From: Escherichia phage vB_EcoM_CRJP21
Strand: one strand, 5' to 3'
Sequence record: OQ708376.1
DNA: 64,000 bases
Positions 1,697-15,539 of the stretch are shown here, one piece after another; position 1 is the first letter of the stretch; each line of letters begins with the position of its first letter. The position numbers were made by a program, and so were the translations under genes. The notes beneath the pieces were generated by a model, which ran no database searches, was not told the origin of the DNA, and worked only from the letters and a program-made list of their open reading frames with translations.

Positions 1697-1713
1697 GCGG
1701 GAACACTTCCCGC
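1697..1713 (+). promoter_or_regulatory. palindromic leader hairpin/operator GCGGGAA-cac-TTCCCGC
   Basis: first of about 20 similar GGGGAA-nnn-TTCCCC palindromes placed just after promoters. Confidence 0.55.
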
Positions 1714-1737
1714 TACACATTAAGAGAGATTAAAACG

Positions 1738-2100
1738 ATGGCGACTCAAATCAATAAAATCATGCTTAACCTGGTAAACTTCCGCGATGAGATGAAAGGT
1801 CTTCCGGCTGAAACTGTAAAAATTCACATTGCAGCTTATCGGGAACTTATTGCAATGTTGCCGCTTAAGCGTGAACAATACGCCGCTACTTTGATGCTGG
1901 ATTCAATGATCCATATAATGATCTCAAATGATTTGACGATGGTTTATCAGTATATGGGCGAAAATTTCGCGGTGTGTAGTAAGCCAGTACCAGGGATGGC
2001 AACAACTGAGGAATTGCACGGCTTAAACTTAAAACAAGATGCATGGGATAATATGCCTCGTTTCCTGGTATGGGCTGACAGTGGCAAAATTTACAAATAA
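1738..2100 (+). CDS. hypothetical protein (120 aa)
   Basis: track ORF restarted at internal ATG downstream of promoter and hairpin. Confidence 0.6.
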   Translation: MATQINKIMLNLVNFRDEMKGLPAETVKIHIAAYRELIAMLPLKREQYAATLMLDSMIHIMISNDLTMVYQYMGENFAVCSKPVPGMATTEELHGLNLKQDAWDNMPRFLVWADSGKIYK

Positions 2101-2114
2101 GTTTAATAAAGTAC

Positions 2115-2142
2115 TTGCAAACTATGTTTAATGGCGTATAAT
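2115..2142 (+). promoter_or_regulatory. sigma70-like promoter (TTGCAA, 16 bp, TATAAT)
   Basis: AAAGTACTTGCAA...GCGTATAAT consensus of this region. Confidence 0.65.
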
Positions 2143-2193
2143 GTTTTACATCAGGTGGGGAATAGTTCCCCACTATATAAGAGGATTAAAAAA

Positions 2194-2433
2194 ATGGCTA
2201 AATCAAAAATGTTCTTAGGTCACAAAAACAAAACTCATTGGAATGTAAGCCTTTGGATTAATAACGATGAGGGATTGTATCGGTTGGCCCAGGACTTTAT
2301 TAACGATAGCACTAATCGCAATGATGCGGCCCGTCATATGATGTTATTTTTAGAACAGACTGGACAAGATAAAACACCGGACGGATTCAAATATAGCACT
2401 ACTGCGATCCGTGCGGCGATGGTTGGAATGTAA
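2194..2433 (+). CDS. hypothetical protein (79 aa)
   Basis: internal ATG after promoter, hairpin 2156-2173 and RBS. Confidence 0.6.
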   Translation: MAKSKMFLGHKNKTHWNVSLWINNDEGLYRLAQDFINDSTNRNDAARHMMLFLEQTGQDKTPDGFKYSTTAIRAAMVGM

Positions 2434-2519
2434 TAGAATTTATTTAAAGTACTATCATTTTTTTGCGATAGTACTTTATAATAGTGTTTTATTCATACAC
2501 CAACGATAAGGGCAACAGC

Positions 2520-2786
2520 ATGAAAATTAAGTATTTTGCGACGCGTGAACAAGCTCGGATCGCCGCACGCCAGGACGGGGCAACGTTTAAAGATATGGGC
2601 GTACAATCGGAACGTGGTAAACGTTGGGCCATTGTAAAGCGTAGTACCGCCAGATCATTACAGTACTGGTTAGCGGCCTTAAAAAGTCCCGATAGTGTAT
2701 CGCGTCGAGTGGTAGAAATAAAGCTCGACCGAAAGGGCAACCGCGTGACCGTGTACCGTACTAAAAAGATTGCAGTACTTGAATAA
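2520..2786 (+). CDS. hypothetical protein (88 aa), paralog of 14497..14892
   Basis: shared KYFATREQARIAAR and DRKGNRVTVY motifs; RBS TAAGGG. Confidence 0.6.
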   Translation: MKIKYFATREQARIAARQDGATFKDMGVQSERGKRWAIVKRSTARSLQYWLAALKSPDSVSRRVVEIKLDRKGNRVTVYRTKKIAVLE

Positions 2787-2793
2787 AAAGTAC

Positions 2794-2821
2794 TTGCAAA
2801 CTATGTTTAATGGCGTATAAT
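2794..2821 (+). promoter_or_regulatory. sigma70-like promoter (TTGCAA, 16 bp, TATAAT)
   Basis: near-identical to promoter at 2115. Confidence 0.65.
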
Positions 2822-2873
2822 GTTTTACATCGAGAGCGGGAACTCTTCCCGCCTATAACCTGGAGTAATGAAA

Positions 2874-3104
2874 ATGACTAATATGTATATGACTGAAGTT
2901 AAAACCGTAAAAGATACTACCACGAATAAAACTACTTACTTACAGCGGATCTGTGGTGTATGGCAACGTATCAGCAAATCAAAGTACTTTAAATTAACAT
3001 CATATGCAAACCGTTCGGATTCATTCAGTACTGAAATAAAAGGTAATAAAGTACACCAATACGGCACTTATTATTATTATAGCCTGGACGCGATTGCAGT
3101 ATAA
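2874..3104 (+). CDS. hypothetical protein (76 aa)
   Basis: ATG 8 nt after GGAG; hairpin 2836-2852. Confidence 0.55.
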   Translation: MTNMYMTEVKTVKDTTTNKTTYLQRICGVWQRISKSKYFKLTSYANRSDSFSTEIKGNKVHQYGTYYYYSLDAIAV

Positions 3105-3186
3105 GCAGTTTACAAATCTTTACAATTGCCGGTATTGACTTATTTTGTCAGTACTGGCATAATGTATTCATTGGCAGATAAGCCGT

Positions 3187-3214
3187 AGCCCATAGGGTGC
3201 GGGAGTGTATCTAT
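3187..3214. repeat. R2 motif copy (AGCCCATAGGGTGCGGGAGTGTATCTAT)
   Basis: about 28-bp motif recurring at about 9172, 13194, 16469, 18721. Confidence 0.55.
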
Positions 3215-3245
3215 AGAAAAATTAGTTTAGTATAGTTACAATTGT

Positions 3246-3303
3246 GCACCCGGTGGGTTAGCTGTTGTCATGGGGTATATTATACCAGTACTTGATAATG
3301 CTG
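3246..3303. repeat. R1 element copy 2
   Basis: matches 1081..1145 and 4778..4833. Confidence 0.5.
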
Positions 3304-3354
3304 TCAATACTTTTTTTTTACTATTCAGTACTGAAAACTATTTTTAAAAAGTAC

Positions 3355-3382
3355 TTGCAAACTATGTTTAAAGGCGTATAAT
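3355..3382 (+). promoter_or_regulatory. sigma70-like promoter (TTGCAA-TATAAT), upstream member of tandem pair
   Basis: consensus boxes. Confidence 0.6.
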
Positions 3383-3389
3383 GTTTTAC

Positions 3390-3465
3390 ATCAGGACGGG
3401 GAACGAAATAAGTAACTTCCCGTTAAGTAGCCCAGGAGTAAGGCACACGAAAAACTCCCCTGATA
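3390..3465 (+). ncRNA. candidate structured leader / small RNA (copy 1)
   Basis: about 75-nt element with two imperfect hairpins between tandem promoters; second copy at 13300..13375. Confidence 0.35.
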
Positions 3466-3472
3466 AAATAGT

Positions 3473-3500
3473 TTGACAAATGTTTTTAAAAGCGTATAAT
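3473..3500 (+). promoter_or_regulatory. sigma70-like promoter (TTGACA, 16 bp, TATAAT)
   Basis: consensus boxes, proximal to gene 3533. Confidence 0.6.
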
Positions 3501-3532
3501 ACTTACATCAACTACTGAATGAGGGTTACAAA

Positions 3533-4144
3533 ATGAAAACTATCACTACTACTACTTATGTTATGGCTTTTTCTGAATTGAACGCAGAACAACAAACGTC
3601 AGCTATCGAACTGGTTCGGGAACGTGAAAAAAACTCAAACGACAATTATTTTTCTGAAAGTGAAATTGAATACTATAAAGAAACAGTACTACCGGAATAT
3701 GGCATTAATGACGCTGAAATACAATTCAGTGGTTTTTGGTCCCAGGGTGACGGTGCATCAATCAGTACTGACCACGTTGACGCAGTGAAGTTTTTACGCA
3801 AGGTAAGAGCATTAACTAAGTATCGCTCAATCCGTCACTTGCTGAATGAAGATGATTTGGCGATGAGTGTAAAACGTTCGCACTCCCACTACTCGCATGA
3901 GAATACTGTAAGCGGGTACATTGAATCGGCTTACACTGATTTAACCGCAAAACAAGAAACGTTAGTTAATGAGCTTGAGGAACTACTCACTGAAACTATT
4001 CGTGAATTGTCCCGCAAGTTGTACCGTGATTTAGAGAATGCATATGAGGATCAATTCACTACTGAAAACATTACGGCACTGATTGAGGGTAACGAATATC
4101 AATTCAATGTTATTGATGGCGTAGTAGAATCAATCGAATATTAA
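3533..4144 (+). CDS. hypothetical protein (203 aa)
   Basis: track ORF; RBS GAGGG 7 nt upstream. Confidence 0.7.
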   Translation: MKTITTTTYVMAFSELNAEQQTSAIELVREREKNSNDNYFSESEIEYYKETVLPEYGINDAEIQFSGFWSQGDGASISTDHVDAVKFLRKVRALTKYRSIRHLLNEDDLAMSVKRSHSHYSHENTVSGYIESAYTDLTAKQETLVNELEELLTETIRELSRKLYRDLENAYEDQFTTENITALIEGNEYQFNVIDGVVESIEY

Positions 4145-4156
4145 TTTAAAAAGTAC

Positions 4157-4184
4157 TTGCAAACTAAGTTTAAAAGCGTATAAT
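4157..4184 (+). promoter_or_regulatory. sigma70-like promoter (TTGCAA, 16 bp, TATAAT)
   Basis: consensus boxes. Confidence 0.6.
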
Positions 4185-4236
4185 ACTTTATATCGAGAGC
4201 GGGAATAGTTCCCGCTACTAATGAGGAATACTACAA

Positions 4237-4401
4237 ATGAATACTTTTACCTTCGCTCAATTGAACGCCCTGGATGTATTGTCTGATGCTTTGCGGGATG
4301 CAACTGAAAGCGGTTTATTTGACAATGTTGACATTCACCCTGATGTAATTAATAATTTTTGTGATGCTATCGCAGAAGTACTGGAAGATCTAAAAAAATA
4401 A
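4237..4401 (+). CDS. hypothetical small protein (54 aa, not in ORF track)
   Basis: hand translation MNTFTFAQLNALDV...; promoter + hairpin + RBS upstream. Confidence 0.55.
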   Translation: MNTFTFAQLNALDVLSDALRDATESGLFDNVDIHPDVINNFCDAIAEVLEDLKK

Positions 4402-4411
4402 TAGAAAGTAC

Positions 4412-4439
4412 TTGCAATTAGTTTTCAGTACTGTATAAT
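4412..4439 (+). promoter_or_regulatory. sigma70-like promoter with extended -10 (TTGCAA ... TGTATAAT)
   Basis: consensus boxes. Confidence 0.65.
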
Positions 4440-4489
4440 GGTTTACATCAAAGGGAGAAATGGTTCTCCCTGGTAATGAGGAAAATACA

Positions 4490-4711
4490 ATGGCTAATAT
4501 CACTACTCTTTCCCAACTGGAAGCACTGGTTAAATCTATGCGGGAACATGCTGACAAAATCGGCGTACAAGATCCAGCCGTTTGCTTCTGCGACGAATTG
4601 AATGATGATACCCTGGTAATAGCAGAAGTCCAGGACGTTTCTAACTATTCCTCGCGTTACACTGGCGGCGTAGCAAATAAAGGTGACTTCTGTTTATACC
4701 TTACAAAATAA
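4490..4711 (+). CDS. hypothetical protein (73 aa)
   Basis: internal ATG after leader hairpin 4453-4470; track start lies inside the hairpin. Confidence 0.6.
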   Translation: MANITTLSQLEALVKSMREHADKIGVQDPAVCFCDELNDDTLVIAEVQDVSNYSSRYTGGVANKGDFCLYLTK

Positions 4712-4712
4712 C

Positions 4713-4748
4713 AACGCGGGGAGATAATAACTCCCCGTTACTTTTTCA
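4713..4748 (+). terminator. rho-independent terminator (GC stem + T-run)
   Basis: CGGGGAG-ataataa-CTCCCCG then CTTTTT. Confidence 0.6.
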
Positions 4749-4777
4749 GTACTGAATCATTTAATAGACGGATCTCG

Positions 4778-4833
4778 GCACCCGGTGGGTTAGTGACTGT
4801 TTCGTCTTGATGTAGTAATTATGCCAGTACTGG
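4778..4833. repeat. R1 element copy 3
   Basis: GCACCCGGTGGGTTAG...CTTGATGTAGTAATTATGCCAGTACTGG. Confidence 0.5.
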
Positions 4834-4954
4834 ATGCACTTGTCAACAATTATTTTCCAAATACTTTTTATTAAAATACTTGCAATTAGTTTTTAAACGC
4901 GTATAATGTTTTGCATAGGGGGAGCGGTTCCCCTGGTAACTAAGGAATAATAAA

Positions 4955-5191
4955 ATGCTTGAACAAATCAAATCAACGTCTTCGAATGTAACGGGAACGG
5001 TAGCACACTTTACTAGTGATGAATCGCGGGGCGTTCCCTATTGTGCTGTACATGTAAACACTGAGGGTAACTACTGGTTTACGGTTTACGGATCATATTC
5101 ATTTGGACGGCCTGGACATCAAAAAATTCTGGATAAAGTACAACCAACGGGTAAAAATATCACTGCCGAAATGTTTTATAAAAAATCATAA
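4955..5191 (+). CDS. hypothetical protein (78 aa)
   Basis: track ORF; promoter + GGGGAGCGGTTCCCC hairpin + RBS. Confidence 0.65.
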   Translation: MLEQIKSTSSNVTGTVAHFTSDESRGVPYCAVHVNTEGNYWFTVYGSYSFGRPGHQKILDKVQPTGKNITAEMFYKKS

Positions 5192-5275
5192 AGTACTTGC
5201 AATTAGTTTTTAGTACTGTATAATATTTTACATCGCAAGGGGAAACGGTTTCCCCTGGTAACTAAGGATAATCAA

Positions 5276-5575
5276 ATGAAAATTGCAATCATCGCCCTGG
5301 CTTTATCTGTTTCCTCTTTCGCTGTTAATGCGTCATTAGATGTAAGTAGTGAAAAATTCATTCAGTGCACTGTTGCAATGACCGATGAAAGAACTGGCGA
5401 GATTGTATTAAAGGATTTAGAGATCCAGCCGGAAGCATTTAAAAACGGCCCGTTCCATGAAGAAGACGAAAACGGTAGCACGACAATTTATTATGATGCC
5501 AGTACTAAACGCGGTTCGGTCACTGTAATGGATACCGAGAAAGTAACTCATACCGGCGTTATTAATTGCCGTTGA
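5276..5575 (+). CDS. small secreted/periplasmic protein (Sec-type signal peptide)
   Basis: N-terminus MKIAIIALALSVSSFAVNA with AxA-like cleavage site. Confidence 0.6.
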   Translation: MKIAIIALALSVSSFAVNASLDVSSEKFIQCTVAMTDERTGEIVLKDLEIQPEAFKNGPFHEEDENGSTTIYYDASTKRGSVTVMDTEKVTHTGVINCR

Positions 5576-5596
5576 TAGATACTACGGGGTAACATC

Positions 5597-5827
5597 ATGA
5601 CTAAGCGAATTGTTTTACTTAACGAAAGCAGTACTACACAACTACTTAACGCCGTGCATTATGATATTGAAACGAGCGTTAATCTTATCAGTACTGTAGT
5701 TCTGTTGGACACTGGAAAGGTAGCCAATGATAAAGCGATTGCAGGTATACTAACGGATCTTGTGCCTGGTAGCAGTGCACCAATAACGTTAAATGGTAAA
5801 GTGTTTAATATTTTACTCACTGATTAA
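5597..5827 (+). CDS. hypothetical protein (76 aa)
   Basis: track ORF followed by terminator. Confidence 0.55.
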   Translation: MTKRIVLLNESSTTQLLNAVHYDIETSVNLISTVVLLDTGKVANDKAIAGILTDLVPGSSAPITLNGKVFNILLTD

Positions 5828-5833
5828 GTACAT

Positions 5834-5857
5834 AGCCCACCTGGTGGGCTTTTTTGT
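5834..5857 (+). terminator. rho-independent terminator
   Basis: AGCCCAC-ctg-GTGGGCT + TTTTTTG. Confidence 0.7.
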
Positions 5858-6060
5858 TTTTGTAGTATCGTAGTACTGAGATACTTTGAAAATAGTTTTA
5901 AAAAAGTAGTTGACATTACCACAGAAAAGCGTAGAATGTATTACATCAAGACGGGGAGCACTAAGTAGACCGCCAGTAAGTCGAACGAAAAACTGGACAC
6001 GTCGAGAAAACTTTGATACACTAATAAACGTAAACTAAACTTTAATTGAGGATTTATAAA

Positions 6061-6543
6061 ATGGCTAATGTAAAATCATTCATCAAAGCACTGGTAGCAA
6101 ATGAAACTAACGTCGCGGCTGAGATCCTGGCTGAACTGGATAACGATACCATGAAAGCGGTACGCAACAATTTTAACATTGCGTACAGTGAAGCTAAAGA
6201 ACTGCAAGCCAAAAAGGTAGCAGAACTGGAAGAACAGAAAAAAGCCCGTGAAGCAGAACTACAAGCAACAATTGAAAGTATTCAGGCGGCAGTGTCTGGA
6301 TTGGATCTGGAAGTGGTTGTAGAAATGGCACATAAAGCCCTGGCGGTTAAGTACGGTGAAGATAAGCCGGAATCTAAACCTAAAAAATGGATTCAAGAAC
6401 GTGTTACTGTAGTACTTGATAACGGTGAAGAACATTTGATTCCTGTACGCGGTAACTGCATTGCGGTAGTACTGGACGCTATCAAAGAAAGCGGTATGAC
6501 TCGCGAGGAATGGATCGAAGCTCATCGCAAAGTTGAAGCATAA
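6061..6543 (+). CDS. hypothetical protein (160 aa)
   Basis: ATG 8 nt after GAGGA; promoter TTGACA/TAGAAT at about 5908-5936. Confidence 0.65.
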   Translation: MANVKSFIKALVANETNVAAEILAELDNDTMKAVRNNFNIAYSEAKELQAKKVAELEEQKKAREAELQATIESIQAAVSGLDLEVVVEMAHKALAVKYGEDKPESKPKKWIQERVTVVLDNGEEHLIPVRGNCIAVVLDAIKESGMTREEWIEAHRKVEA

Positions 6544-6564
6544 CAATTAAAGTACTGAATCACT

Positions 6565-6592
6565 AGCCCACCTTAAACAGTGGGCTTTTTTG
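6565..6592 (+). terminator. rho-independent terminator
   Basis: AGCCCAC-loop-GTGGGCT + TTTTTT. Confidence 0.7.
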
Positions 6593-6610
6593 TGTCTGTA
6601 GTATTCCAGT

Positions 6611-6680
6611 CCACCAGCACCGCCTAGAATCGATTCTAACGCATTAAACTGATTATCTGATACATCGCCCTAGCTGGTGG
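6611..6680. repeat. inverted Chi-like octamer pair (CCACCAGC ... GCTGGTGG) flanking inverted R4 motif
   Basis: direct read. Confidence 0.55.
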
Positions 6681-6828
6681 CGTTAAGGTCGTTAGAATGC
6701 GATTGAGAGCGTTTAAAGTATTTTGCAAAAAGTAATAAAAAGTACTTGCACGATTAAGAGATTAGCGTATAATGTTTTACATCGAGAGGGGGAAACGGTT
6801 CTCCTTCCAAATCAAAGGAATCAAAACA

Positions 6829-7056
6829 ATGGCTATTATCATTACTCGCGTATCTGGTACTACTGGCAACGAACAAGTAGTTGCAGTCATTACTAACAAG
6901 GCAGGTGCGGAATTGCAAAATGCAATGAATACCTGGGCCGTTAATGAGTTCGGTCAGTGGGCAAGTGTAGCATACATTGAAACCTATCAAGTGCCGTCGA
7001 TTAGTTTAACTGATTTGGGCGTTGAGCGTATCCTTTGCCTGGATGAATTAAATTAA
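6829..7056 (+). CDS. hypothetical protein (75 aa), MAII-start paralog group
   Basis: internal ATG after promoter and hairpin; N-terminus resembles 7143 and 10054 genes. Confidence 0.6.
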   Translation: MAIIITRVSGTTGNEQVVAVITNKAGAELQNAMNTWAVNEFGQWASVAYIETYQVPSISLTDLGVERILCLDELN

Positions 7057-7142
7057 AAAAAGTACTTGCAAAGTAAATCGAATAAAGTATAATACATTAC
7101 ATCAAGGGGAGAAATGATTCTCCCCACTACAAGGAAACTAAA

Positions 7143-7355
7143 ATGGCTATCATTACTAAAATCAAAGTTAACAAGACTATCGTTAAACTGGCAGAAGTGA
7201 AAGAAGGTTATAAAGTATCTTGGTGCGGTATGTATCGGACGTTCGCAGATATAGATGATGCGATCAATTATTACAGTGACACGGTTAAAAACTTTGTTCG
7301 TGCTGATGTGGTTATGGCAGTGGCAACATATAAAGCAGCGAAAGAAAGTAAGTAA
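7143..7355 (+). CDS. hypothetical protein (70 aa), MAII-start paralog group
   Basis: track ORF; promoter + GGGGAGAAATGATTCTCCCC hairpin. Confidence 0.65.
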   Translation: MAIITKIKVNKTIVKLAEVKEGYKVSWCGMYRTFADIDDAINYYSDTVKNFVRADVVMAVATYKAAKESK

Positions 7356-7374
7356 AAATATTATCACAGTACTA

Positions 7375-7403
7375 TTGACATAGTTTGATAGTACTGGCAT
7401 AAT
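7375..7403 (+). promoter_or_regulatory. class-II promoter (AGTACT-flanked TTGACA, 17 bp, CATAAT), no leader hairpin
   Basis: same architecture at about 9990, 10258, 18047. Confidence 0.6.
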
Positions 7404-7446
7404 AGATTTTATCAAGACGACACATATTAATTTAAGGAATACTAAA

Positions 7447-7770
7447 ATGGCTAAAACTATCATCAACACCGTTTCCCTGGCTGCAATCCATGCAATCAAT
7501 GTTGACGGTAAACGTTGGACTGATTCATATGGCAATACTTATCATTCTTGTCATGTAAGCGTTGAACTGGATAACGGCTTGAATGATCTGGCGGTTGAAT
7601 CATTTACTTATGGCTATGAGGATGCATATCAACAAACGGCGGTATCACTCTTAAAGGAATCAGTAGACGGGCTTGATACTGTTGAAACCTCCCTCTATCG
7701 TTTGTGCAATGATCTTAATATCCCGTTGCATTGTACTGTACAGGATGTAAAACGTAAAAAAGATCTTTAA
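7447..7770 (+). CDS. hypothetical protein (107 aa), paralog of 14078..14401
   Basis: shared RWTD..GNTYHSC..ETFTYGY..DVKRKKD motifs. Confidence 0.65.
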   Translation: MAKTIINTVSLAAIHAINVDGKRWTDSYGNTYHSCHVSVELDNGLNDLAVESFTYGYEDAYQQTAVSLLKESVDGLDTVETSLYRLCNDLNIPLHCTVQDVKRKKDL

Positions 7771-7850
7771 TTAGCTTTACTTTATGCAGATACTTTGATA
7801 TAGTGTCTGCATAGGGGAAAGAAATTAAATCAACTTAAGAGGAAAGTAAA

Positions 7851-8120
7851 ATGAAAAATATCAGTACTTTAATCGATGCAGGTACACATGTTCGTCGGTC
7901 TATGGTTGCAACCAGTTCTACAAAACAAGTAGCGAGCGGTTATCTTGTATTTGTGCACGATGGAAAACTCCTGGAACGTTCAATCAATTTTGATGTTAAA
8001 AACAATTGCCGTTTTATTATCTTTCGCCGTGAACAATATAAAATTGATTTGCCAGCGAAGCCCATTAGCGGGGCGTACAACGTGCAATCATTGTTTGAGC
8101 GTCAACCTTACACCTATTAA
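7851..8120 (+). CDS. hypothetical protein (89 aa)
   Basis: track ORF; RBS AAGAGGAAAG. Confidence 0.55.
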   Translation: MKNISTLIDAGTHVRRSMVATSSTKQVASGYLVFVHDGKLLERSINFDVKNNCRFIIFRREQYKIDLPAKPISGAYNVQSLFERQPYTY

Positions 8121-8171
8121 TCAAAACATCGTTAGCGGTCGATTTAGGCCGCTTATATTGGGGATTATACC

Positions 8172-8444
8172 ATGAACGTTAATCAAGTACTGAATGAGAT
8201 CGAAAGCATCATTAAACCGATGAAGCGTACTGATGCTATGTTAACACCGGAAGAATGCCGCCTTTATGAGCGTTACAGCGTCGAACAAGTCCAGGCAATG
8301 GCTATGGCTACCCCAGCCGTTTCACCGCCTGAGAATGCGTTACAGGACGTTACAGGGGATTATATCATTAATCCAGTACTAGGGAAGATGACTGCAATCA
8401 CCGAAGATCAAAAAGACTACTTAAGCCAGTACTTAAAAGGTTAA
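8172..8444 (+). CDS. hypothetical protein (90 aa)
   Basis: track ORF. Confidence 0.5.
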   Translation: MNVNQVLNEIESIIKPMKRTDAMLTPEECRLYERYSVEQVQAMAMATPAVSPPENALQDVTGDYIINPVLGKMTAITEDQKDYLSQYLKG

Positions 8445-8449
8445 TTAAT

Positions 8450-8659
8450 ATGCTTACTGTACAGGATAAGATCGACATCTTAAAGGTTAATATGTATGTG
8501 ATTGATGCCGTACCTGGTAAAGTATTTGCATACGATGATAGTACTGTAAGCGATTTCTACTATAGCCAGGACGTGGGGGATCTTTCTGTACAGTCGGTTA
8601 TTGAAAACGTAGTTAATGCAGCGTATGAGCATTTACTTTCAAATAGTACTTGCAATTAG
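8450..8659 (+). CDS. hypothetical protein (69 aa)
   Basis: track ORF; next promoter overlaps its 3' end. Confidence 0.5.
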   Translation: MLTVQDKIDILKVNMYVIDAVPGKVFAYDDSTVSDFYYSQDVGDLSVQSVIENVVNAAYEHLLSNSTCN

Positions 8660-8727
8660 TTTTTAAACGCGTATAATGTTTTACATGAAGGGGAGAAATG
8701 ATTCTCCCCAATAACAGGAGAAACAAA

Positions 8728-8880
8728 ATGAAACAATACAACGCTCGGTTTGATGTTACTATCGGTAACGGCAAAGGTCAATTCTCTTTCAGTACTCGCC
8801 GCAGTTATACAGAAAACTTCCTGCGTAATTGTGCACTGACCGCCGCTCAAATTAAACACTATTTTCAGGCTAAAAAATGA
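8728..8880 (+). CDS. hypothetical protein (50 aa)
   Basis: ATG 7 nt after CAGGAG; promoter + hairpin upstream. Confidence 0.55.
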   Translation: MKQYNARFDVTIGNGKGQFSFSTRRSYTENFLRNCALTAAQIKHYFQAKK

Positions 8881-8966
8881 AATCATTAGCTTATTACAGT
8901 TCGGCCCTGGTCGGTGCATTGATCGCGGCATTGTTAGTAACCTATCTATTCTTTATGGTGATTTAA
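8877..8966 (+). CDS. small hydrophobic peptide (29 aa, single predicted TM helix)
   Basis: ATGA overlap with upstream stop; MKSLAYYSSALVGALIAALLVTYLFFMVI. Confidence 0.4.
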   Translation: MKSLAYYSSALVGALIAALLVTYLFFMVI

Positions 8967-9110
8967 ATGAATCCAACAGGTTTAAACTATAAAAGTTGTT
9001 CTGCATTTACGAAAGCAAATAAAGCGAATGCACGTAAAGCGAAAGTACAGGAATACATCAAGCAAGGCATGACGCGAAAAGCGGCGATTATAAAAGCTAA
9101 AAATAAATGA
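8967..9110 (+). CDS. small basic protein (47 aa)
   Basis: TAAATG coupling; K/R-rich. Confidence 0.4.
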   Translation: MNPTGLNYKSCSAFTKANKANARKAKVQEYIKQGMTRKAAIIKAKNK

Positions 9111-9202
9111 AAAAAGTGGTTGACTTCGGTCAGCCATTTTGTTATTATATATTCATTGAGAGATAGCTCACTAGCCCACAGGGTGCAGGAGTGTATCTAT
9201 TG
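9111..9202 (+). repeat. intergenic cassette copy A: hairpin-embedded promoter (R3) + R2 28-mer
   Basis: TTGACT-17-TATTAT inside inverted repeat, then AGCCCACAGGGTGCAGGAGTGTATCTAT. Confidence 0.55.
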
Positions 9203-9320
9203 TATGAGTATTGAGTACTGAAAACTATTTTTAAAAAGTACTTGCAAACTATCTCAATAAGCGTATAATGTTTTACATCGAAAGGGGAAACGGTTTCCCC
9301 TGGTAATAAGGAAACAAATC

Positions 9321-9662
9321 ATGACTATCTCAATTGCTCAATCTAACTTTGAAAATGAAATCATCGCCCAGGCACTGCGTTTAAATGATGGTCGGGCCGA
9401 AATTAATTACGGTTTCAATTCAGGCGGTTGCGAAAAATATCAGTACTTTGTAACGGCTGATGGCGGTGTCCTGGGTATCAATACAGTTATTGTAAACATC
9501 CAAAAAATTAATTTCAATGATCCAGACGATAGCCAGTTTTACATCACTGGCGTAGACGTGAACTATGAGGATGACTCACTAACTGATGATCACACTGGCG
9601 AGCGGTTAGAAAGTGCATACGGTGAAGATGATTATCAGTCCGGTCCAGAAGATTTCGAATAA
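9321..9662 (+). CDS. hypothetical protein (113 aa)
   Basis: track ORF; promoter 9242-9269 + GGGGAAACGGTTTCCCC hairpin. Confidence 0.65.
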   Translation: MTISIAQSNFENEIIAQALRLNDGRAEINYGFNSGGCEKYQYFVTADGGVLGINTVIVNIQKINFNDPDDSQFYITGVDVNYEDDSLTDDHTGERLESAYGEDDYQSGPEDFE

Positions 9663-9758
9663 TATAAAAAAATAGTTTGACAATAGATTATAGTACTGTA
9701 TAATAGTTTACATCAAGGGGAGAAAAACTTCTCCCCACTAACAGAGAGAGAAAACAAA

Positions 9759-9971
9759 ATGGCTAATATCCGGTCGAAATTAAAAAATGCAAAACAAGTT
9801 TTATTTTCAGATCATGAATACTTTAATAAAGATATTACAGGAGTTACAAGTATCAAGGAAGTAAAAGAAAAAACCGGCGTTTTGTGTGATGTGCGATTAG
9901 TTGGAACATTTGGGAATAACGTGCTATATCGCTGCGGTGATTACAATTTTACACTGACTATCATTAACTAA
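9759..9971 (+). CDS. hypothetical protein (70 aa)
   Basis: track ORF; promoter TTGACA...TGTATAAT + hairpin. Confidence 0.6.
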   Translation: MANIRSKLKNAKQVLFSDHEYFNKDITGVTSIKEVKEKTGVLCDVRLVGTFGNNVLYRCGDYNFTLTIIN

Positions 9972-10053
9972 AAATATTATCACAGTACTATTGACATAGT
10001 TTGATAGTACTGACATAATAACTTTTATCAACTACACTATTAAGGAATTAAAA

Positions 10054-10233
10054 ATGGCTATCATCGCAAAAACTGAAATCGTTGGTCTGGATTCTATCAT
10101 CATGACGTTTGAAGATCAAAAAGGTATGTATGTAGTTTCATATGGTGATTATGTTCGGGAGTATGAAACGGTAGACGAAGCCTTTGAAAGTTACATTCGC
10201 CAGGTGAATAAAGCATACGACGATTACCGCTAA
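10054..10233 (+). CDS. hypothetical protein (59 aa, not in track), MAII-start paralog group
   Basis: hand translation MAIIAKTEIVGLDS...; class-II promoter upstream; replaces track minus ORF 10100..10300. Confidence 0.55.
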   Translation: MAIIAKTEIVGLDSIIMTFEDQKGMYVVSYGDYVREYETVDEAFESYIRQVNKAYDDYR

Positions 10234-10332
10234 AATATATTACCAGTACTATTAAAGATATTGACAACGTTTGATAGTACTGTATAATAAGTTTTATCAA
10301 CAGTAGTTAACTTAACCTAAGAGAGAAATAAA

Positions 10333-10476
10333 ATGATCGCACTGGATTCATTCATCGACGCAGTACTGGCAAAAACTGGCGAGGATCTGACCGCAGAACA
10401 ATACGCAATGATCGAGCAATGCCAGCAAGACGGTAAATCGGTGAAAGATACTGTTAAGATTATCCGCAAGATGTAA
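10333..10476 (+). CDS. hypothetical small protein (47 aa, not in track)
   Basis: class-II promoter + RBS AAGAGAGAAA; terminator follows. Confidence 0.5.
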   Translation: MIALDSFIDAVLAKTGEDLTAEQYAMIEQCQQDGKSVKDTVKIIRKM

Positions 10477-10482
10477 GATTAT

Positions 10483-10512
10483 AGCCCACTGGTTAACGCT
10501 GGTGGGCTTTAA
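10483..10512 (+). terminator. candidate terminator hairpin (contains Chi octamer GCTGGTGG at 10498-10505)
   Basis: AGCCCAC-loop-GTGGGCT, weak T-run. Confidence 0.4.
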
Positions 10513-10581
10513 TTCATTACCCTATACAATGCCAGTACTAAACCGTTTATCTCGTTAGAATGCGTTACAGGACGTTTAACA

Positions 10582-10779
10582 ATGATTAGCATGAAATCAG
10601 TACAAAAACAAATAGAAACATTATCAAAAATTAAACGTAAACAGTACTCCTTAGAATATACAATCAATGGTAACTATCATCTAATGAAAGAGAATAATTT
10701 TATAGTCATTGATGAATCATTGCAAATCATTAGTATAGTACTGAAAGCATTAATCAATGACAGAAAAAAATTAAAATAA
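10582..10779 (+). CDS. hypothetical protein (65 aa; alt start 10591)
   Basis: track ORF preceded by R4 motif. Confidence 0.45.
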   Translation: MISMKSVQKQIETLSKIKRKQYSLEYTINGNYHLMKENNFIVIDESLQIISIVLKALINDRKKLK

Positions 10780-10874
10780 ACTATTGACAATATCATCAAG
10801 TACTGGCATAATACTTACATCAAGACGAGAACGTCACTAACCCATAGGGTGCACAAATGTAACTGTATAATATT

Positions 10875-10905
10875 GATCAAAAAATGATCTGATCAATACT
10901 TGATC
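10875..10905. promoter_or_regulatory. cluster of four GATC sites (three TGATCA palindromes) in 31 bp
   Basis: direct read; intergenic. Confidence 0.5.
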
Positions 10906-11110
10906 AATTTGCGTAAAGTAGTATAATTCTATGCAGTTGGTTAGACGAAAGGTTATGATTAGTAGTGCAAGTGTATAAAAATTTTCATGGTGTATCGTTT
11001 CGCACATATGGGGATGAATATGTGGTATCATGTGGATTGGAAAAAGTAAGAACAAGTAATATTATTGTCGCATTACAGTACTATAGTATTTTTATAATGA
11101 GGTTAAAATA

Positions 11111-11368
11111 ATGGCTGTAGGATTCGCGAAAGATGGGGCCGAACAAGACGAGATTAACGCAGTGATTCAGGCCGCCGTTAACCACGCTAGAAAGCAAATT
11201 AACGCACAAATAGAATCACTGATACATTGCCTCGACTGCGGCGATATAATCCCTGAGAATCGACGCCAGGCCGTTAAGGGATGTAAGTACTGCATAACTT
11301 GCCAGGAGGATCATGATAGTACTTTTAAACGTCCCCCGCGTAATTGTTGGCATAGATCTATGAGATAA
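11111..11368 (+). CDS. TraR/DksA-family C4 zinc-finger protein
   Basis: CLDCGDIIPENRRQAVKGCKYCITC matches CxxCG-x3-IP-x2-RR-...-C-x2-C signature. Confidence 0.65.
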   Translation: MAVGFAKDGAEQDEINAVIQAAVNHARKQINAQIESLIHCLDCGDIIPENRRQAVKGCKYCITCQEDHDSTFKRPPRNCWHRSMR

Positions 11369-11431
11369 AAAGTATTGACAGTACTGAAAGATAGTGTATA
11401 ATGTTTTATATCTTAACTGAGGATAGAAATC

Positions 11432-11788
11432 ATGGGAATACAACATATCACGCGTACTACTGACAATGGCGAGATCACTGGTTATCAAGTACAGGGCAAA
11501 GTAGCACAATTGCAGTACTGGTTTGTTAAACGTGGAATCATTGCACCGGATCTTGATTATGACCGTGTAGCGTTTATTGATTCTCTTTATGTTGATCCTG
11601 ATAGTCGGGGCAATGGTGAAGGTAACGAATTAATGAATGCCTTTATTGATGCCGCCGATGATTCAGATTGTATCATTTTAGAATGCGATACGGGAGAAGA
11701 TAACGCCTTTAATCTTAAAGAATGGTACGAAGGTTTCGGATTCGAGGTACTGATCGATAGTGAATATCCTATCATGATTTTATCATAG
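11432..11788 (+). CDS. putative GNAT-like acetyltransferase (small)
   Basis: RGNGEGNELMNAFIDAA resembles GNAT motif A; assignment tentative. Confidence 0.4.
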   Translation: MGIQHITRTTDNGEITGYQVQGKVAQLQYWFVKRGIIAPDLDYDRVAFIDSLYVDPDSRGNGEGNELMNAFIDAADDSDCIILECDTGEDNAFNLKEWYEGFGFEVLIDSEYPIMILS

Positions 11789-11866
11789 TACTTGCATTTA
11801 GTTTTCAGTAGTGTTATAGTACTTACATCAAGGGGAAACATCTTCCCCTACTAAGAGGAAATGAAA

Positions 11867-12055
11867 ATGGAAAACTTATCAAGTATTTTAGTACAAGATG
11901 ATTTCGGTAATCCTGGAAGTGCTATCATTGTTCGGGGTAATAAAGCAACATTTGTTATTGCTGGTGGACCTGTACAGCGTAGCATTAAAAACAATGCCGT
12001 TACTATTAATAATGTACGCTATCGCTTAGATAAAGAATTGATTCATAAACTGTAA
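11867..12055 (+). CDS. hypothetical protein (62 aa)
   Basis: second ATG, 7 nt after AAGAGGA. Confidence 0.55.
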   Translation: MENLSSILVQDDFGNPGSAIIVRGNKATFVIAGGPVQRSIKNNAVTINNVRYRLDKELIHKL

Positions 12056-12082
12056 TATTAATTTAATAGAGGATAACAATAA

Positions 12083-12406
12083 ATGTACATTCATACTACT
12101 ATCACAAAGGAAGTCCGTTGCCAGTTCGAAAGTATTCCGGGCGTATGTTTCATCACTGGTACGTTTTCCCCTGGTGATCGTGATAATCCAGTACTGTTAC
12201 AATTACGCCATCCATCATGGGATAAAGCATTTGATCTACCGTTGAATGAATTCGCAACTACTGCTGAAAAGTACATTAAAAATATTCGCGAGAATGATCG
12301 ACTATTCATTAATGCTTTTAGTGATTCCGCGTTAAGCGAGATCCACGGTGTATTGGTTGCAATCATGGAATCAATGGAGAAAACTAAATTCAAACAAGGT
12401 GAATAA
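12083..12406 (+). CDS. hypothetical protein (107 aa)
   Basis: track ORF; RBS AGAGGA. Confidence 0.6.
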   Translation: MYIHTTITKEVRCQFESIPGVCFITGTFSPGDRDNPVLLQLRHPSWDKAFDLPLNEFATTAEKYIKNIRENDRLFINAFSDSALSEIHGVLVAIMESMEKTKFKQGE

Positions 12407-12412
12407 AAACTA

Positions 12413-12440
12413 TTGACAAGATAATCTAGTACTGTATAAT
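12413..12440 (+). promoter_or_regulatory. sigma70-like promoter with extended -10 (TTGACA, 16 bp, TGTATAAT)
   Basis: consensus boxes. Confidence 0.65.
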
Positions 12441-12489
12441 AAGTTACATGAAGGGGAGAAATGATTCTCCCCACTGAGAGGAAAGAAAA

Positions 12490-12702
12490 ATGCAAGGTCA
12501 ACTAATCGTTCGTAAATGGTCTGATACTAACGCTAAACCGTGGGATGTACAATACATCGGACCGGATGGGGTATCACGTTATCAGCCTGGCGTAACGCAT
12601 AGTACTGAGCAATATGCCGCCGCTCACCGCGAACGCCTGTTAGAATCCATGAAACAGGGATACGGTGAAAAATTCATTCAAGATCATTGGCTGAAAGATT
12701 AA
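12490..12702 (+). CDS. hypothetical protein (70 aa)
   Basis: track ORF; promoter + hairpin. Confidence 0.6.
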   Translation: MQGQLIVRKWSDTNAKPWDVQYIGPDGVSRYQPGVTHSTEQYAAAHRERLLESMKQGYGEKFIQDHWLKD

Positions 12703-12719
12703 TATAAGGAGTACAGCTT

Positions 12720-12812
12720 ATGCAAATGAATCCGATGATTATTGTTTTAGCTGTACTTATGATCATTCATGCAATAGTAGAAGTATTAACGCAATCAGGA
12801 GTAATAAAATGA
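12720..12812 (+). CDS. small hydrophobic peptide (30 aa, predicted TM)
   Basis: strong RBS TAAGGAG 8 nt upstream; MQMNPMIIVLAVLMIIHAIVEVL... Confidence 0.5.
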   Translation: MQMNPMIIVLAVLMIIHAIVEVLTQSGVIK

Positions 12813-12982
12813 TTCAAGTAGAATTATCAGTACTGAAAGATCTGTTTTATCGGTTAGGTACTACTGGCGAGTATCCTAAAAGTGATACCGCAAAACTTTT
12901 TGTATCACTCGACTTATGGCAACGCGAACAATTAGTAATGTCCTGGCGTAAAGGTAAAGCAGATAGCGAGGTGAAAGCATGA
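12809..12982 (+). CDS. hypothetical small protein (57 aa, not in track)
   Basis: ATGA coupling to upstream peptide. Confidence 0.45.
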   Translation: MIQVELSVLKDLFYRLGTTGEYPKSDTAKLFVSLDLWQREQLVMSWRKGKADSEVKA

Positions 12983-13128
12983 AAGAATTCTTATTCGAAG
13001 TAGTGTTTCAAGGTGTCGGTAGTAACCAACTGATTCGCTCAAGTGGTTACAATGTTAACCAGGCATGGAATAACATTAAACAAATGTACCCGAACGCTAT
13101 CACCTATCGCAACCCGAAACAAGTTTAA
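12979..13128 (+). CDS. hypothetical small protein (49 aa, not in track)
   Basis: ATGA coupling. Confidence 0.45.
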   Translation: MKEFLFEVVFQGVGSNQLIRSSGYNVNQAWNNIKQMYPNAITYRNPKQV

Positions 13129-13137
13129 AAATAATTG

Positions 13138-13234
13138 AAAAAGGGATTGACTCCGGTCAGTCCCTTTGCTATTATATACGCATAGAAACAAATCAGCCCA
13201 CAGGGTGCATAAATGTATCTATTGTTTGCTGGTG
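13138..13234 (+). repeat. intergenic cassette copy B (R3 hairpin-promoter + R2) followed by Chi octamer 13227-13234
   Basis: near-identical to copies at 9111, 16409, 18667. Confidence 0.55.
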
Positions 13235-13299
13235 GCTAGTACTGAAAACTATTTTTAAAAAAGTACTTGCATTGTACTTAGAATCAAGTATAATGTTTT

Positions 13300-13375
13300 A
13301 CATCAGGACGGGGAACGAAACAAGTAACCCCGTTAAGTAGTCCAGGAGTAAGACATAAGAAAACCTCCCCTGATA
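13300..13375 (+). ncRNA. candidate structured leader / small RNA (copy 2)
   Basis: about 90 percent identical by eye to 3390..3465; between tandem promoters. Confidence 0.35.
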
Positions 13376-13443
13376 AAATAGTTTGACAATAGAAAGTAAA
13401 CGAGTATAATACTTACATCAACCACTGATAAGGAAACATTAAA

Positions 13444-13719
13444 ATGCGGATTCTACTGACAGCTAACGAAATCGAACAAGTACTGACTACTAACCTGGAA
13501 GACTGGAAACGTGAAGCAGATATCCAGGCGGTTCAACGGCTTAACGATGAGTTAACGCCGGATGACTTAAGCAAGATTGTAGATCCTCAATTCTACGAAG
13601 ATATCCACGACACCGCGTTAAGCGTCGAGGATGTACTAGATAAGCACTACATTGATATTGATTTGCAGGTTTACGGTCGTAAAAACTTTATCACTATTCA
13701 CGACATTTACAATAATTAA
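13444..13719 (+). CDS. hypothetical protein (91 aa)
   Basis: track ORF; promoter TTGACA-16-TATAAT at 13382-13409. Confidence 0.65.
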   Translation: MRILLTANEIEQVLTTNLEDWKREADIQAVQRLNDELTPDDLSKIVDPQFYEDIHDTALSVEDVLDKHYIDIDLQVYGRKNFITIHDIYNN

Positions 13720-13805
13720 GTATTGACAAAGTATCTTAGTACTGTATAATAGTTTACATCGAGAGGGGGAATGGTTCCCCTCCTAACAAAGAGAGAGAAA
13801 TAAAA

Positions 13806-13988
13806 ATGGCTAAATGCACTATCTGTAAGAAAGAAATCGTATTAGTTCCAAGTGCCCGTGAACGTGCCGCTCGGTTCGGTGGCAAAGCGTCAGACTATAC
13901 AAAAATGTTTACTACCCATGCAGCTTGCCAGGTAGCAAAACGTTCACAAGAAAGCGTAGAATTAATGCGTAAACTTTCCAAAAAATAA
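13806..13988 (+). CDS. hypothetical protein (60 aa, Cys-containing)
   Basis: track ORF; promoter + GGGGGAATGGTTCCCCTCC hairpin. Confidence 0.6.
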   Translation: MAKCTICKKEIVLVPSARERAARFGGKASDYTKMFTTHAACQVAKRSQESVELMRKLSKK

Positions 13989-14077
13989 GTATTGACAAAG
14001 TATCTTAGTACTGTATAATAGTTTACATCAAGCGAGGGGAATGGTTCCCCTCCTAACTAAAAGAGAGAGAAATAAAA

Positions 14078-14401
14078 ATGGCTATGATCCTTACCCAGAA
14101 AGTAGAACTGAAAATTGTAACCTCCTTTGACATTAAAGTTAATCGCTGGACTGATCGGAACGGTAACACTTACCACTCTTGCTACGTGTCCGCGTTAATT
14201 GGCGACCGCTGGGAAGACTTGGGACATGAAACCTTTACTTACGGTTACGGTACACAAGGAGAATACACGGGCTTGGAGATCATTAAAGAAACCGTTATAG
14301 GTTTCAACCCGAAAGAAAAAGTTATTCACCGCATCGAAAAAGAGATTAACAAAGAAATAACAGTTCGCTACTACGATGTAAAACGTAAGAAAGACATGTA
14401 A
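14078..14401 (+). CDS. hypothetical protein (107 aa), paralog of 7447..7770
   Basis: promoter/leader duplicated from the 13727 copy. Confidence 0.65.
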   Translation: MAMILTQKVELKIVTSFDIKVNRWTDRNGNTYHSCYVSALIGDRWEDLGHETFTYGYGTQGEYTGLEIIKETVIGFNPKEKVIHRIEKEINKEITVRYYDVKRKKDM

Positions 14402-14496
14402 TAGAATCCATTTAAAGTACTATTTGACATTGCCCAGATAGTACTTTATAATAGACTCTAACTTGTAGTACTAACTCAACTAATAGGATGTATACC

Positions 14497-14892
14497 ATGA
14501 TTACTAAATTCTACGCTACCCGTGAAGCTGCCCGTATTGTTGCACGCGAGGAAGGAGCAGCATTTAAAGACATGGGCAAAGATGCACCGAAAGGTCAACG
14601 CTGGGCCGTACAGTTCAAAGAAATCTCTGATATCGTGAATTCACCGGAGCCAGTACTAACAGCAGCAGAACTAAAACGAGCGGATTTACTGGCGGCAGTA
14701 CTTAACGCACAAGATGAATTTATCGCTGATTCTGATATCAAAGTACAGACAAACCATACCGCTTGGACTCACGCGGATCACCTGGCAAACCTTAAGCGTC
14801 CAAGTGAACTGGTTCGCAACCAGAAAGAGATCCGACACGACCGTAAGGGTAATCGTGTAACAGTATACAGTAAACGCCGCCAGGTTATCTAA
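14497..14892 (+). CDS. hypothetical protein (131 aa), paralog of 2520..2786
   Basis: ATG 8 nt after TAGGA; shared motifs. Confidence 0.6.
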   Translation: MITKFYATREAARIVAREEGAAFKDMGKDAPKGQRWAVQFKEISDIVNSPEPVLTAAELKRADLLAAVLNAQDEFIADSDIKVQTNHTAWTHADHLANLKRPSELVRNQKEIRHDRKGNRVTVYSKRRQVI

Positions 14893-14914
14893 TAACTTGC
14901 AGTACTAACAACAC

Positions 14915-14940
14915 GGCGGGATCAGTTCCCGCCTTTTTTA
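14915..14940 (+). terminator. rho-independent terminator
   Basis: GGCGGGA-tcagt-TCCCGCC + TTTTTT. Confidence 0.75.
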
Positions 14941-14954
14941 TAGGATAAACTAAA

Positions 14955-15209
14955 ATGATTAAGGTACAACTATCTAAAGATAATATCTTGCGGGTACACT
15001 ATAAAGCACCACAGAGAATCATCACAAAGGCCGTACAGCTTGCTAATGAGTTTATTAATGGTAACCTATTACCAAGGAAGTTAAGCAACGGAAAACTGCG
15101 TGTAATCGATGTAGACACTAACAACAGAATAGTAATTGAGAACACAGGAAAGATAAACCTATATGAACACCAACAATATAATAAGAAAATAAAACTAATA
15201 TCACGTTGA
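14955..15209 (+). CDS. hypothetical protein (84 aa)
   Basis: track ORF. Confidence 0.55.
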   Translation: MIKVQLSKDNILRVHYKAPQRIITKAVQLANEFINGNLLPRKLSNGKLRVIDVDTNNRIVIENTGKINLYEHQQYNKKIKLISR

Positions 15210-15262
15210 CAGTACTCAATTGTTTTAGTACTATGTACATATACCAACACGGGAGAAACAAA

Positions 15263-15481
15263 ATGAAATTATCTAAAATCGAAAAGAAAACTATTGATGA
15301 AGCAGTTAAGCACGGTTATACCTTTCGTAATGATTCACATTTTACCAATTTTCAACAAGGGTATCGTACTATTAAAAAACTCATTGACAAAGGTTTATTA
15401 GTTGAAGTCAATAACGGCAATGGTATTGAGTATCAACCAACACAAGACGCATTTTATTTTAAGAAATATAATATTATCTAA
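15263..15481 (+). CDS. hypothetical protein (72 aa)
   Basis: internal ATG after promoter TTGACAGTACTCAA... Confidence 0.55.
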   Translation: MKLSKIEKKTIDEAVKHGYTFRNDSHFTNFQQGYRTIKKLIDKGLLVEVNNGNGIEYQPTQDAFYFKKYNII

Positions 15482-15539
15482 TTGACAGTACTCAAATGTT
15501 TTAGTACTATATGTACATACCAACACGGGGAAAAACAAA

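Follow-up and report, generated by a model that had tools for sequence, protein, structure and literature searches.

We analyzed the early region of Escherichia phage vB_EcoM_CRJP21 in a stretch of 64,000 nucleotides of sequence record OQ708376.1, here called the window. Most early genes in this region are preceded by a repeated promoter-leader unit, and we refer to a unit together with its open reading frame (ORF) as a cassette. Our results indicate that the early region probably evolves by homologous recombination between these repeated units. At fixed slots, cassettes are for the most part gained, lost or exchanged for other alleles, and the genes are seldom re-ordered. An earlier interpretation, made from the letters alone (the sequence-only reading), had proposed that cassettes at 2520-14892 are shuffled and that the repeated promoters probably mediate this shuffling. 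Comparison with related phages bore out the role of the promoters as crossover sites. It also bore out the shuffling as far as gain, loss and replacement are concerned, while re-ordering proved to be rare.

The location of the region was established by comparison with 50,697 phage records. Window 1-20,000 matched 225 of them in megablast. The top-ranked records were Escherichia coli jumbo phages of approximately 350-385 kb, mostly of the genus Asteriusvirus, and the best match was fEgEco12 (95.7% identity over 84% of the query, from record position 1). Position 1 of the window corresponds to position 1 of fEgEco12, that is, to its left genome end. For fEgEco12, a direct terminal repeat (DTR) of 20,993 bp has been derived with PhageTerm and verified by restriction digestion (PMC13070987). 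We observed 0 mismatches in 20,993 bp between the left and right ends of this genome, and the end of its DTR mapped to window position 20,152. By homology with fEgEco12, window 1-20,152 is thus the predicted equivalent of the Asteriusvirus DTR of approximately 21 kb. The stretch 2520-14892 lies wholly within it, since the DTR end maps to 20,152. The record of vB_Ec-M-J annotates positions 1-21,525 as direct terminal repeats. Just beyond 20,152 the G+C content changes from approximately 0.38 to approximately 0.33. The DTR holds approximately 50 small early genes, and from about 360 to about 19,300 every gene lies on the + strand.

Promoter-leader units of the early region

The repeated units were grouped into repeat families D1-D10. 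We searched for the 16-mer GTATAATNNTTTACAT with up to 2 mismatches and obtained 30 matches (3.1 expected), 28 of which were on the + strand between 387 and 19,275. A strict scan detected 36 sigma-70-type promoters, all on the + strand, composed of TTGCAa or TTGACA, a 16-17 nt spacer and TATAAT. Conserved among the units is also an A-rich upstream tract, AAAAAGTAC. The cassettes also share a conserved start region, GTTTTACAT, and the predicted transcription start in the units is the A/C of TTTTACAT. Identity between units ranged from 73% (median) to 92% over approximately 85 nt. This likeness reaches past both hexamers, to the upstream A-tract, the spacer, the start region and the leader. The promoters presumably fire early in infection.

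In 22 units we identified a G+C-rich hairpin with a stem of 7-9 bp (-10.6 to -15.9 kcal/mol), which begins 5-9 nt past the predicted start site. A Shine-Dalgarno (SD) sequence and an ATG follow approximately 15-20 nt beyond the hairpin, and the predicted 5' untranslated regions of these units are 40-52 nt long. The 22 hairpins comprised 18 distinct stem-loop sequences, in which we observed compensatory GC/AU/CG changes as well as several G-U pairs. For this analysis pairs were counted outward from the loop, since MAFFT alignment of the leaders put stems of unequal length out of register. None of the 22 stems was followed by a T-run. By sequence, the missing T-run and the position of the stem past the predicted +1 argue against an intrinsic terminator. 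Further, a G-U pair is a C-A mismatch on the opposite strand, and therefore the structure would fit RNA of the + strand and not a terminator or a DNA cruciform. We infer a role of the hairpin at the RNA level, where it would probably stabilise the 5' end or modulate translation. Rfam searched over 1-22 kb returned no known RNA family at E <= 0.1. Approximately 14 units are hairpin-less, and such promoter classes are found for example at 7375, 9991 and 10261.

The distant Klebsiella phage fENko-Kae01 has the same architecture, with near-identical units, in its DTR of 19.7 kb. We counted 37 promoter-like sites there, and leader hairpins accompanied 10 of these. One of its units was almost identical to window unit 19239. 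For this reason we regard the architecture as old and clade-wide. We also scanned IMG/VR for exact matches to the promoter start motif GTATAATGTTTTACAT. Most were single matches in unrelated contigs; the contigs with multiple matches were mainly jumbo phages of approximately 350 kb, confirming the clade only. One viral contig of 108.9 kb, IMGVR_UViG_3300007747_000009 (L010), carried 3 exact copies of GTATAATGTTTTACAT at 5318-7565, on one strand and with a spacing of approximately 1.1 kb. This contig is much smaller than the jumbo phages. Another phage group may have a similar arrangement of early-promoter cassettes.

Junctions in comparison with related phages

We compared window 1-21.5 kb with seven relatives, namely fEgEco12, vB_Ec-M-J, 121Q, UB, A4, CMSTMSU and Turkey5. 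Briefly, blastn alignments were chained in a way that tolerates overlaps, and a junction was called where at least 40 nt were gained or lost. A unit was taken to begin 20 nt before the -35 hexamer and to end 70 nt past the -10 hexamer. We obtained 25 distinct indel or replacement junctions. Thirty-five of their 50 ends fell inside units, which cover 27% of the region (13.4 expected, binomial p = 2.5e-10). Ten of the events showed in-register overlaps of more than 10 nt, with a length of 18-103 nt: one unit aligned to both of the units that flank the extra cassette of the other genome. An 11th overlap, of 24 nt at 7462/7840, consisted of ribosome-binding site (RBS)-ATG sequence and lay outside any unit.

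Hybrid units were identified as well. The units before genes 13806 and 14078 had been described as near-identical in the sequence-only reading, and they are indeed 92% identical over approximately 85 nt. This pair brackets an accessory cassette, in place of which 121Q keeps a single hybrid unit. Followed base by base, its 5' flank comes from the unit before 13806 and its 3' part from the unit before 14078. Window unit 8650 is itself a hybrid, its 5' part corresponding to the fEgEco12 unit before g020 and its 3' part to the unit before g021. Units without a hairpin recombine too, as observed at 7126-7145, 13371-13425 and 18802-18870. In fEgEco12 the orthologue of gene 6829 stands behind a different, hairpin-less promoter, and therefore promoters and genes re-assort.

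Several observations weigh against recombination between units as the source of these changes. Seven of the 25 events have at least one end outside units, at a stop codon, at RBS-ATG or in a gene, with at most short microhomology. Units fill approximately 92% of the non-coding space (0.269 of the 0.291 non-coding fraction), and therefore the enrichment of junction ends alone cannot separate recombination from selection. The order of orthologues was collinear in six of the seven relatives, so re-ordering is rare; the sole transposed cassette was the 4955-type gene in 121Q. In addition, the papers searched contained no data on transcription, RNA structure or recombination for this phage group.

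The first two of these observations would also be expected if selection acted as a filter. Indels would then arise by illegitimate or microhomology-based events, those that damage genes would be purged, and the likeness of the promoters would reflect convergence on the sigma-70 consensus. We consider this explanation unlikely, as the 10 in-register events each left an intact hybrid unit and as the similarity of the units extends well past the hexamers. Since the position of the junctions is insufficient, it is the in-register overlaps and the hybrid units that carry the argument for recombination. From these we infer that recombination, and not selection alone, places the junctions.

Approximately 22 cassettes carry a conserved hairpin beside the ORF, which could suggest an integron-like, site-specific exchange with the hairpin as the recombination site. 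However, the crossover intervals ranged from the upstream A-tract to the ATG, with no fixed point. No integrase-like protein was found in Pfam scans, which took in 18 of the 50 early proteins, or in the annotations of this region in the relatives. The G-U pairs of the stems would pair only in + strand RNA, and exchange at hairpin-less units likewise speaks against such a system. On the basis of the variable crossover intervals and the lack of an integrase among the 18 scanned proteins we rejected integron-like cassettes, which we regard as extremely improbable.

For homologous recombination between promoter-leader units we propose the following mechanism. A cassette would consist of the A-rich element, the sigma-70-type promoter, the start region, the hairpin (in approximately 22 units), the SD sequence and the ORF. 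Units that are 73-92% identical would provide dispersed homology. General homologous recombination of two units would delete the cassette between them, with one hybrid unit as the product. A cassette would be inserted or replaced by the same reaction in reverse, or by exchange with a relative that infects the same cell. The expected outcome would be a mosaic of present and absent cassettes and of alleles among relatives, in which each surviving gene retains a working promoter.

This gives a testable account of change in the most variable approximately 20 kb of jumbo coliphages that are used therapeutically. Single early genes would be swapped at conserved promoter units, while gene order and expression signals are retained. 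The distinction between core and accessory early genes may also aid the choice of candidates for host-takeover or anti-defence functions.

Paralogous genes, MAII genes and accessory cassettes

The sequence-only reading had also described two pairs of paralogous genes and three genes beginning with MAII, and had ascribed them to segmental duplications. We confirmed that both pairs are paralogous. The products of genes 2520-2786 and 14497-14892 (pair 1) were 35% identical at the amino acid level (BLASTP, E 2e-19). They share an N-terminal motif and DRKGNRVTVY, and both match phrog_8127 (E 3e-26 and 3e-35, respectively). The products of genes 7447-7770 and 14078-14401 (pair 2) aligned without gaps along their full length of 107 residues at 37% identity (E 2e-27), and both match phrog_6246 (E 8e-40 and 4e-35, respectively). 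All-against-all BLASTP in 1-20 kb gave no further pairs at E<1e-3.

The DNA did not agree with segmental duplication. Third-codon identity was 0.35 and 0.32 for the two pairs and 0.33 for unrelated genes, which means that the paralogs are old. A self dot-plot of 1-20,152 gave 192 off-diagonal high-scoring segment pairs, and 1 of them reached at least 40 nt into coding DNA on both copies (2428-2600 and 14396-14577, 68% identical, covering one gene start). Pair 2 showed no DNA-level similarity in this plot. We did not observe in it any multi-gene block duplicated with nucleotide identity through coding regions; the paralogs are single, non-syntenic genes. The sequence-only reading had expected similarity beyond the promoters. 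At the DNA level the similarity was essentially limited to them, while at the protein level the paralogy is real.

Recent copying of early-region blocks within the genome, with the paralogs and the MAII genes as its traces, would agree with the existence of two pairs. It would also agree with the promoter and approximately 80 nt of coding sequence that pair 1 shares at 68% DNA identity, and with the adjacent position of the second copies of both pairs. However, the first copies (2520, 7447) are separated by 5 kb and their order is reversed, many members of the genus have both copies of each pair, and the MAII genes are unrelated. The age of the paralogs and their presence across the genus do not fit ongoing duplication. 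Third-codon identity and the self dot-plot largely rule out recent duplication, to which we give hardly any credence.

Genes 6829, 7143 and 10054 do begin with MAII. Beyond the first four codons no BLASTP similarity was detected among them, and they belong to three different PHROGs, so MAII was rejected as a sign of kinship. As many as 13 of the 50 early genes begin with MA, and therefore MAII reflects a shared start-codon context and not paralogy. Gene 7143 is replaced by an unrelated gene in fEgEco12, UB and CMSTMSU, with the junction at the ATG.

The origin of the second copies was considered further. The upstream 22-mer TAGAATNNATTTAAAGTACTAT and the adjoining GATAGTACTTTATAATAG occur within the window at 2434 and 14402 only. 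As this promoter flank is unique to the two copies, pair 1 appears to have been copied together with its promoter; gene 2520-2786 has no central linker. The copies of pair 2 now stand behind two different promoter classes. Relatives of phrog_8127 were found across Rak2-like jumbo phages, with 1 copy in RaK2 and in K64-1 and 2 per unique Asteriusvirus genome, and the homologue in fENko-Kae01 also lies within the DTR of that phage. Members of phrog_6246 were found only in Asteriusvirus-type records, with 1 or 2 copies per unique genome.

The second copies could also be xenologs, that is, divergent alleles acquired from the same pan-genome by cassette exchange and not by duplication within the genome. 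The slot of gene 7447 is accessory, being deleted in UB and occupied by a different allele in A4 (L005 12938-13282). This allele shares 36% and 30% identity with the two copies of the window, while the flanks on either side are approximately 89-91% identical. Several slots carry alleles of 56-73% identity in some relatives and of 97-100% in others. Further, 2520-type proteins are 49% identical to 14497-type proteins over aligned columns, which is about the distance at which homologues of other sources lie (43-54%). On the other hand, the unique 22-mer of pair 1 is most simply explained by copying of promoter and gene within one lineage. The restriction of phrog_6246 to Asteriusvirus-type records also speaks against xenologs, yet a capture that became fixed would look identical. 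We regard xenology as possible but somewhat doubtful. Because the A4 slot holds a third divergent member, these data do not separate duplication within the genome from capture of an already divergent allele. Within the proposed cassette mechanism both pairs would be old products of the same process.

In the A4 slot the first approximately 7 and the last approximately 9 codons (DVKRKKDL) are kept together with the flanks, and the middle of the gene is replaced. Judging from these alignments, the phrog_6246 slot at 7447-7770 appears to behave like a hypervariable locus.

For both families we obtained nothing above the Pfam cut-off and nothing from PADLOC, and PHROGs lists them as 'unknown function'. 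Structure prediction and fold searches gave no functional assignment for phrog_8127 or phrog_6246. The AlphaFold model of phrog_6246 was confident (pLDDT 89.8) but matched only a generic RNase H-like beta-beta-beta-alpha topology. Assignments were few among the approximately 50 early genes in general: a DksA/TraR zinc finger and a GNAT acetyltransferase (above Pfam cut-offs), DUF7247, and a kinase-like protein with a weak Pfam match below the cut-off. Accessory early genes include 7143, 7447, 12083, 13806 and 17473. The features discussed here are collected in Table 1.

Table 1. Coordinates of the predicted DTR equivalent, paralogous genes, promoter-leader units, accessory elements and MAII genes in the window.
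Feature	Coordinates	Strand	Description
DTR equivalent (by homology)	1..20152	+	holds all early promoter-gene cassettes
Pair 1, copy A	2434..2786	+	own promoter 2434-2493 (degenerate -35); gene 2520-2786, 88 aa, phrog_8127
Pair 1, copy B	14402..14892	+	promoter TTGACA-17-TATAAT at 14424-14452; gene 14497-14892, 131 aa, phrog_8127
Pair 2, copy A	7375..7770	+	hairpin-less promoter TTGACA-17-CATAAT; gene 7447-7770, 107 aa, phrog_6246
Pair 2, copy B	13982..14401	+	hairpin-bearing unit 13982-14069; gene 14078-14401, 107 aa, phrog_6246
Accessory cassette	13713..13988	+	unit 92% identical to the next unit; gene 13806-13988; absent from 121Q
Hybrid unit	8641..8714	+	six relatives have an extra cassette between two units that both align here
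Unit	16840..16938	+	four relatives have an extra cassette of ~490 bp (fEgEco12 g047)
Unit	2110..2189	+	vB_Ec-M-J and A4 have an extra cassette of ~316 bp
Unit	9233..9327	+	CMSTMSU has an extra insertion of ~546 bp (95-nt overlap + 451 nt gained)
Accessory gene, DUF7247	12083..12406	+	no own promoter; exact indel, 4 of 7 relatives lack the gene
MAII gene 1	6829..7056	+	phrog_13850; hairpin-type unit in the window
MAII gene 2	7143..7355	+	phrog_35559
MAII gene 3	10054..10233	+	phrog_9374; no similarity to genes 6829 and 7143

Known phage systems and other repeats of the window

The closest known system is PeSL (promoter-early stem-loop) of T4-type phages, described by Arbiol et al. 2010 (PMC2839356) and Comeau et al. 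2014 (PMC4122927). PeSL are repeats of approximately 100 bp that combine an AT-rich stretch, a strong sigma-70 promoter and a stem-loop, and they lie upstream of ORFans in hyperplastic regions (PMC2839356, PMC4122927). When flanking units recombine, genes are deleted or inserted and a chimeric unit stays behind; mini-circles were shown experimentally (PMC2839356; also PMC4122927). The DTR array agrees with PeSL in promoter, stem-loop, location and junctions. Both consist of repeated units of approximately 100 bp with an AT-rich upstream part, a strong sigma-70-like promoter, a stem-loop with G/C tracts and SD-ATG, and in both the units precede small genes without known function that make up hyperplastic regions. 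Where close relatives differ by an indel or a replacement, units form its borders in both systems, and a hybrid unit is found where a cassette is missing. In contrast to PeSL, the stem-loop of the DTR array lies downstream of the predicted start (+5 to +9), in the transcribed leader, and lacks a T-run, so that it is predicted to be an RNA hairpin of the 5' leader and not a terminator or attenuator. PeSL regions are scattered among core genes, whereas the DTR array is one continuous block of approximately 19 kb in a terminal repeat, and the phage studied here is a Rak2-like jumbo phage and not a classical T4-type phage. We conclude that the DTR array is an instance of a known phage cassette mechanism with a variant anatomy. 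It carries the PeSL model into a terminal repeat and to phages other than the classical T4-type ones.

A more far-reaching idea is that the units are clade-wide, actively mobile cassettes specific to Rak2-like DTRs. Cassettes would excise and re-insert as circles that carry genes for host takeover or anti-defence, and the hairpin together with the palindrome AGTACT would be read by a phage factor that couples control of early genes to exchange. We think this rather improbable. If true, a mobile system that moves genes between co-infecting phages would be conserved from E. coli Asteriusvirus to Klebsiella fENko-Kae01.

The location in a terminal repeat, which for our phage follows from homology with fEgEco12, resembles that in phage SPO1. 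As summarised in PMC6873191, SPO1 has approximately 24-26 small early genes clustered in its terminal repeat, with promoters and ribosome-binding sites of the kind found at highly expressed genes. The approximately 50 small genes with consensus promoters in the DTR are a similar arrangement. However, there is no sequence relationship, the host of SPO1 is Gram-positive, and SPO1 genes are organized in operons, whereas most genes here have their own promoter. Host takeover has been shown for SPO1, while here it may be supposed, with hints from the sequence in the DksA/TraR zinc finger, the GNAT acetyltransferase and the kinase-like protein.

The cassette architecture is not described in the papers on the Asteriusvirus and Rak2-like phages fEgEco12, Sharanji, RaK2 and CBB. 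The first three do not mention promoters; the CBB paper lists 18 predicted RpoD-like promoters and says nothing more on them (PMC5259590). Paralogy is well documented in this group, as approximately 10% of the proteins encoded by RaK2 are reported to have paralogues among its other proteins (PMC3622015) and 22 paralogous ORFs are reported in CBB (PMC5259590). The two pairs of the DTR are ordinary examples of Rak2-like paralogy. They differ from it in that the large paralog arrays of the window lie outside the DTR, which holds two pairs only.

These large tandem arrays of small paralogous genes occupy 20,220-28,200 and 35,100-45,800. The array at 20.2-28 kb contains at least 25 members of a family of approximately 70 aa, and the array at 35-45 kb contains several families of 110-165 aa. 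Genes in the arrays lack promoters of their own, and overlaps of 4 nt between them are frequent. Such expansion of gene families is very unlike that of the DTR cassettes.

The palindrome AGTACT (often CAGTACTG) was found at 129 sites in 1-20,152 and at 125 sites in 20,153-64,000. It was the most over-represented hexamer of the DTR, at 19x the expectation from base composition. In the rest of the window it reached 8x expectation, and GTACTG/CAGTAC were slightly higher there. In the coding sequence of the DTR alone the value was 12.7x; the sites occurred in each of the three frames, and their flanks showed no consensus. AGTACT sites in coding sequence were more conserved than average hexamers (79% vs 57% in 121Q, 90% vs 69% in A4), with some turnover. 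The DTR of fENko-Kae01 contained 122 AGTACT sites in 21 kb. Phages usually avoid palindromes. A literature search on over-representation of AGTACT found nothing.

A second repeat family has 7 copies, at 1222-1285, 3133-3214, 9113-9200, 10784-10866, 13140-13222, 16410-16497 and 18668-18750. In 4 of them (9113, 13140, 16410, 18668) the -35 hexamer lies inside a 12-bp hairpin, AAAGGGATTGACTCCGGTCAGTCCCTTT, which is followed by TATTAT. Approximately 20 nt further on, the copies share a conserved 29-mer, YAGCCCAYAGGGTGCRGGAGTGTATCTAT, and the copy at 1247 terminates in a terminator-like T-run. The family had no Rfam match and its 7 copies gave no covariation support. It may be a family of short transcripts.

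The first 1.6 kb of the window are free of genes. They contain repeats with an 8-bp period at 779-906 (family D11), with GGCT every 8 nt, for example AGACGGCTAAACGGCTAGATGGCT. These may form a packaging, replication or protein-binding array.

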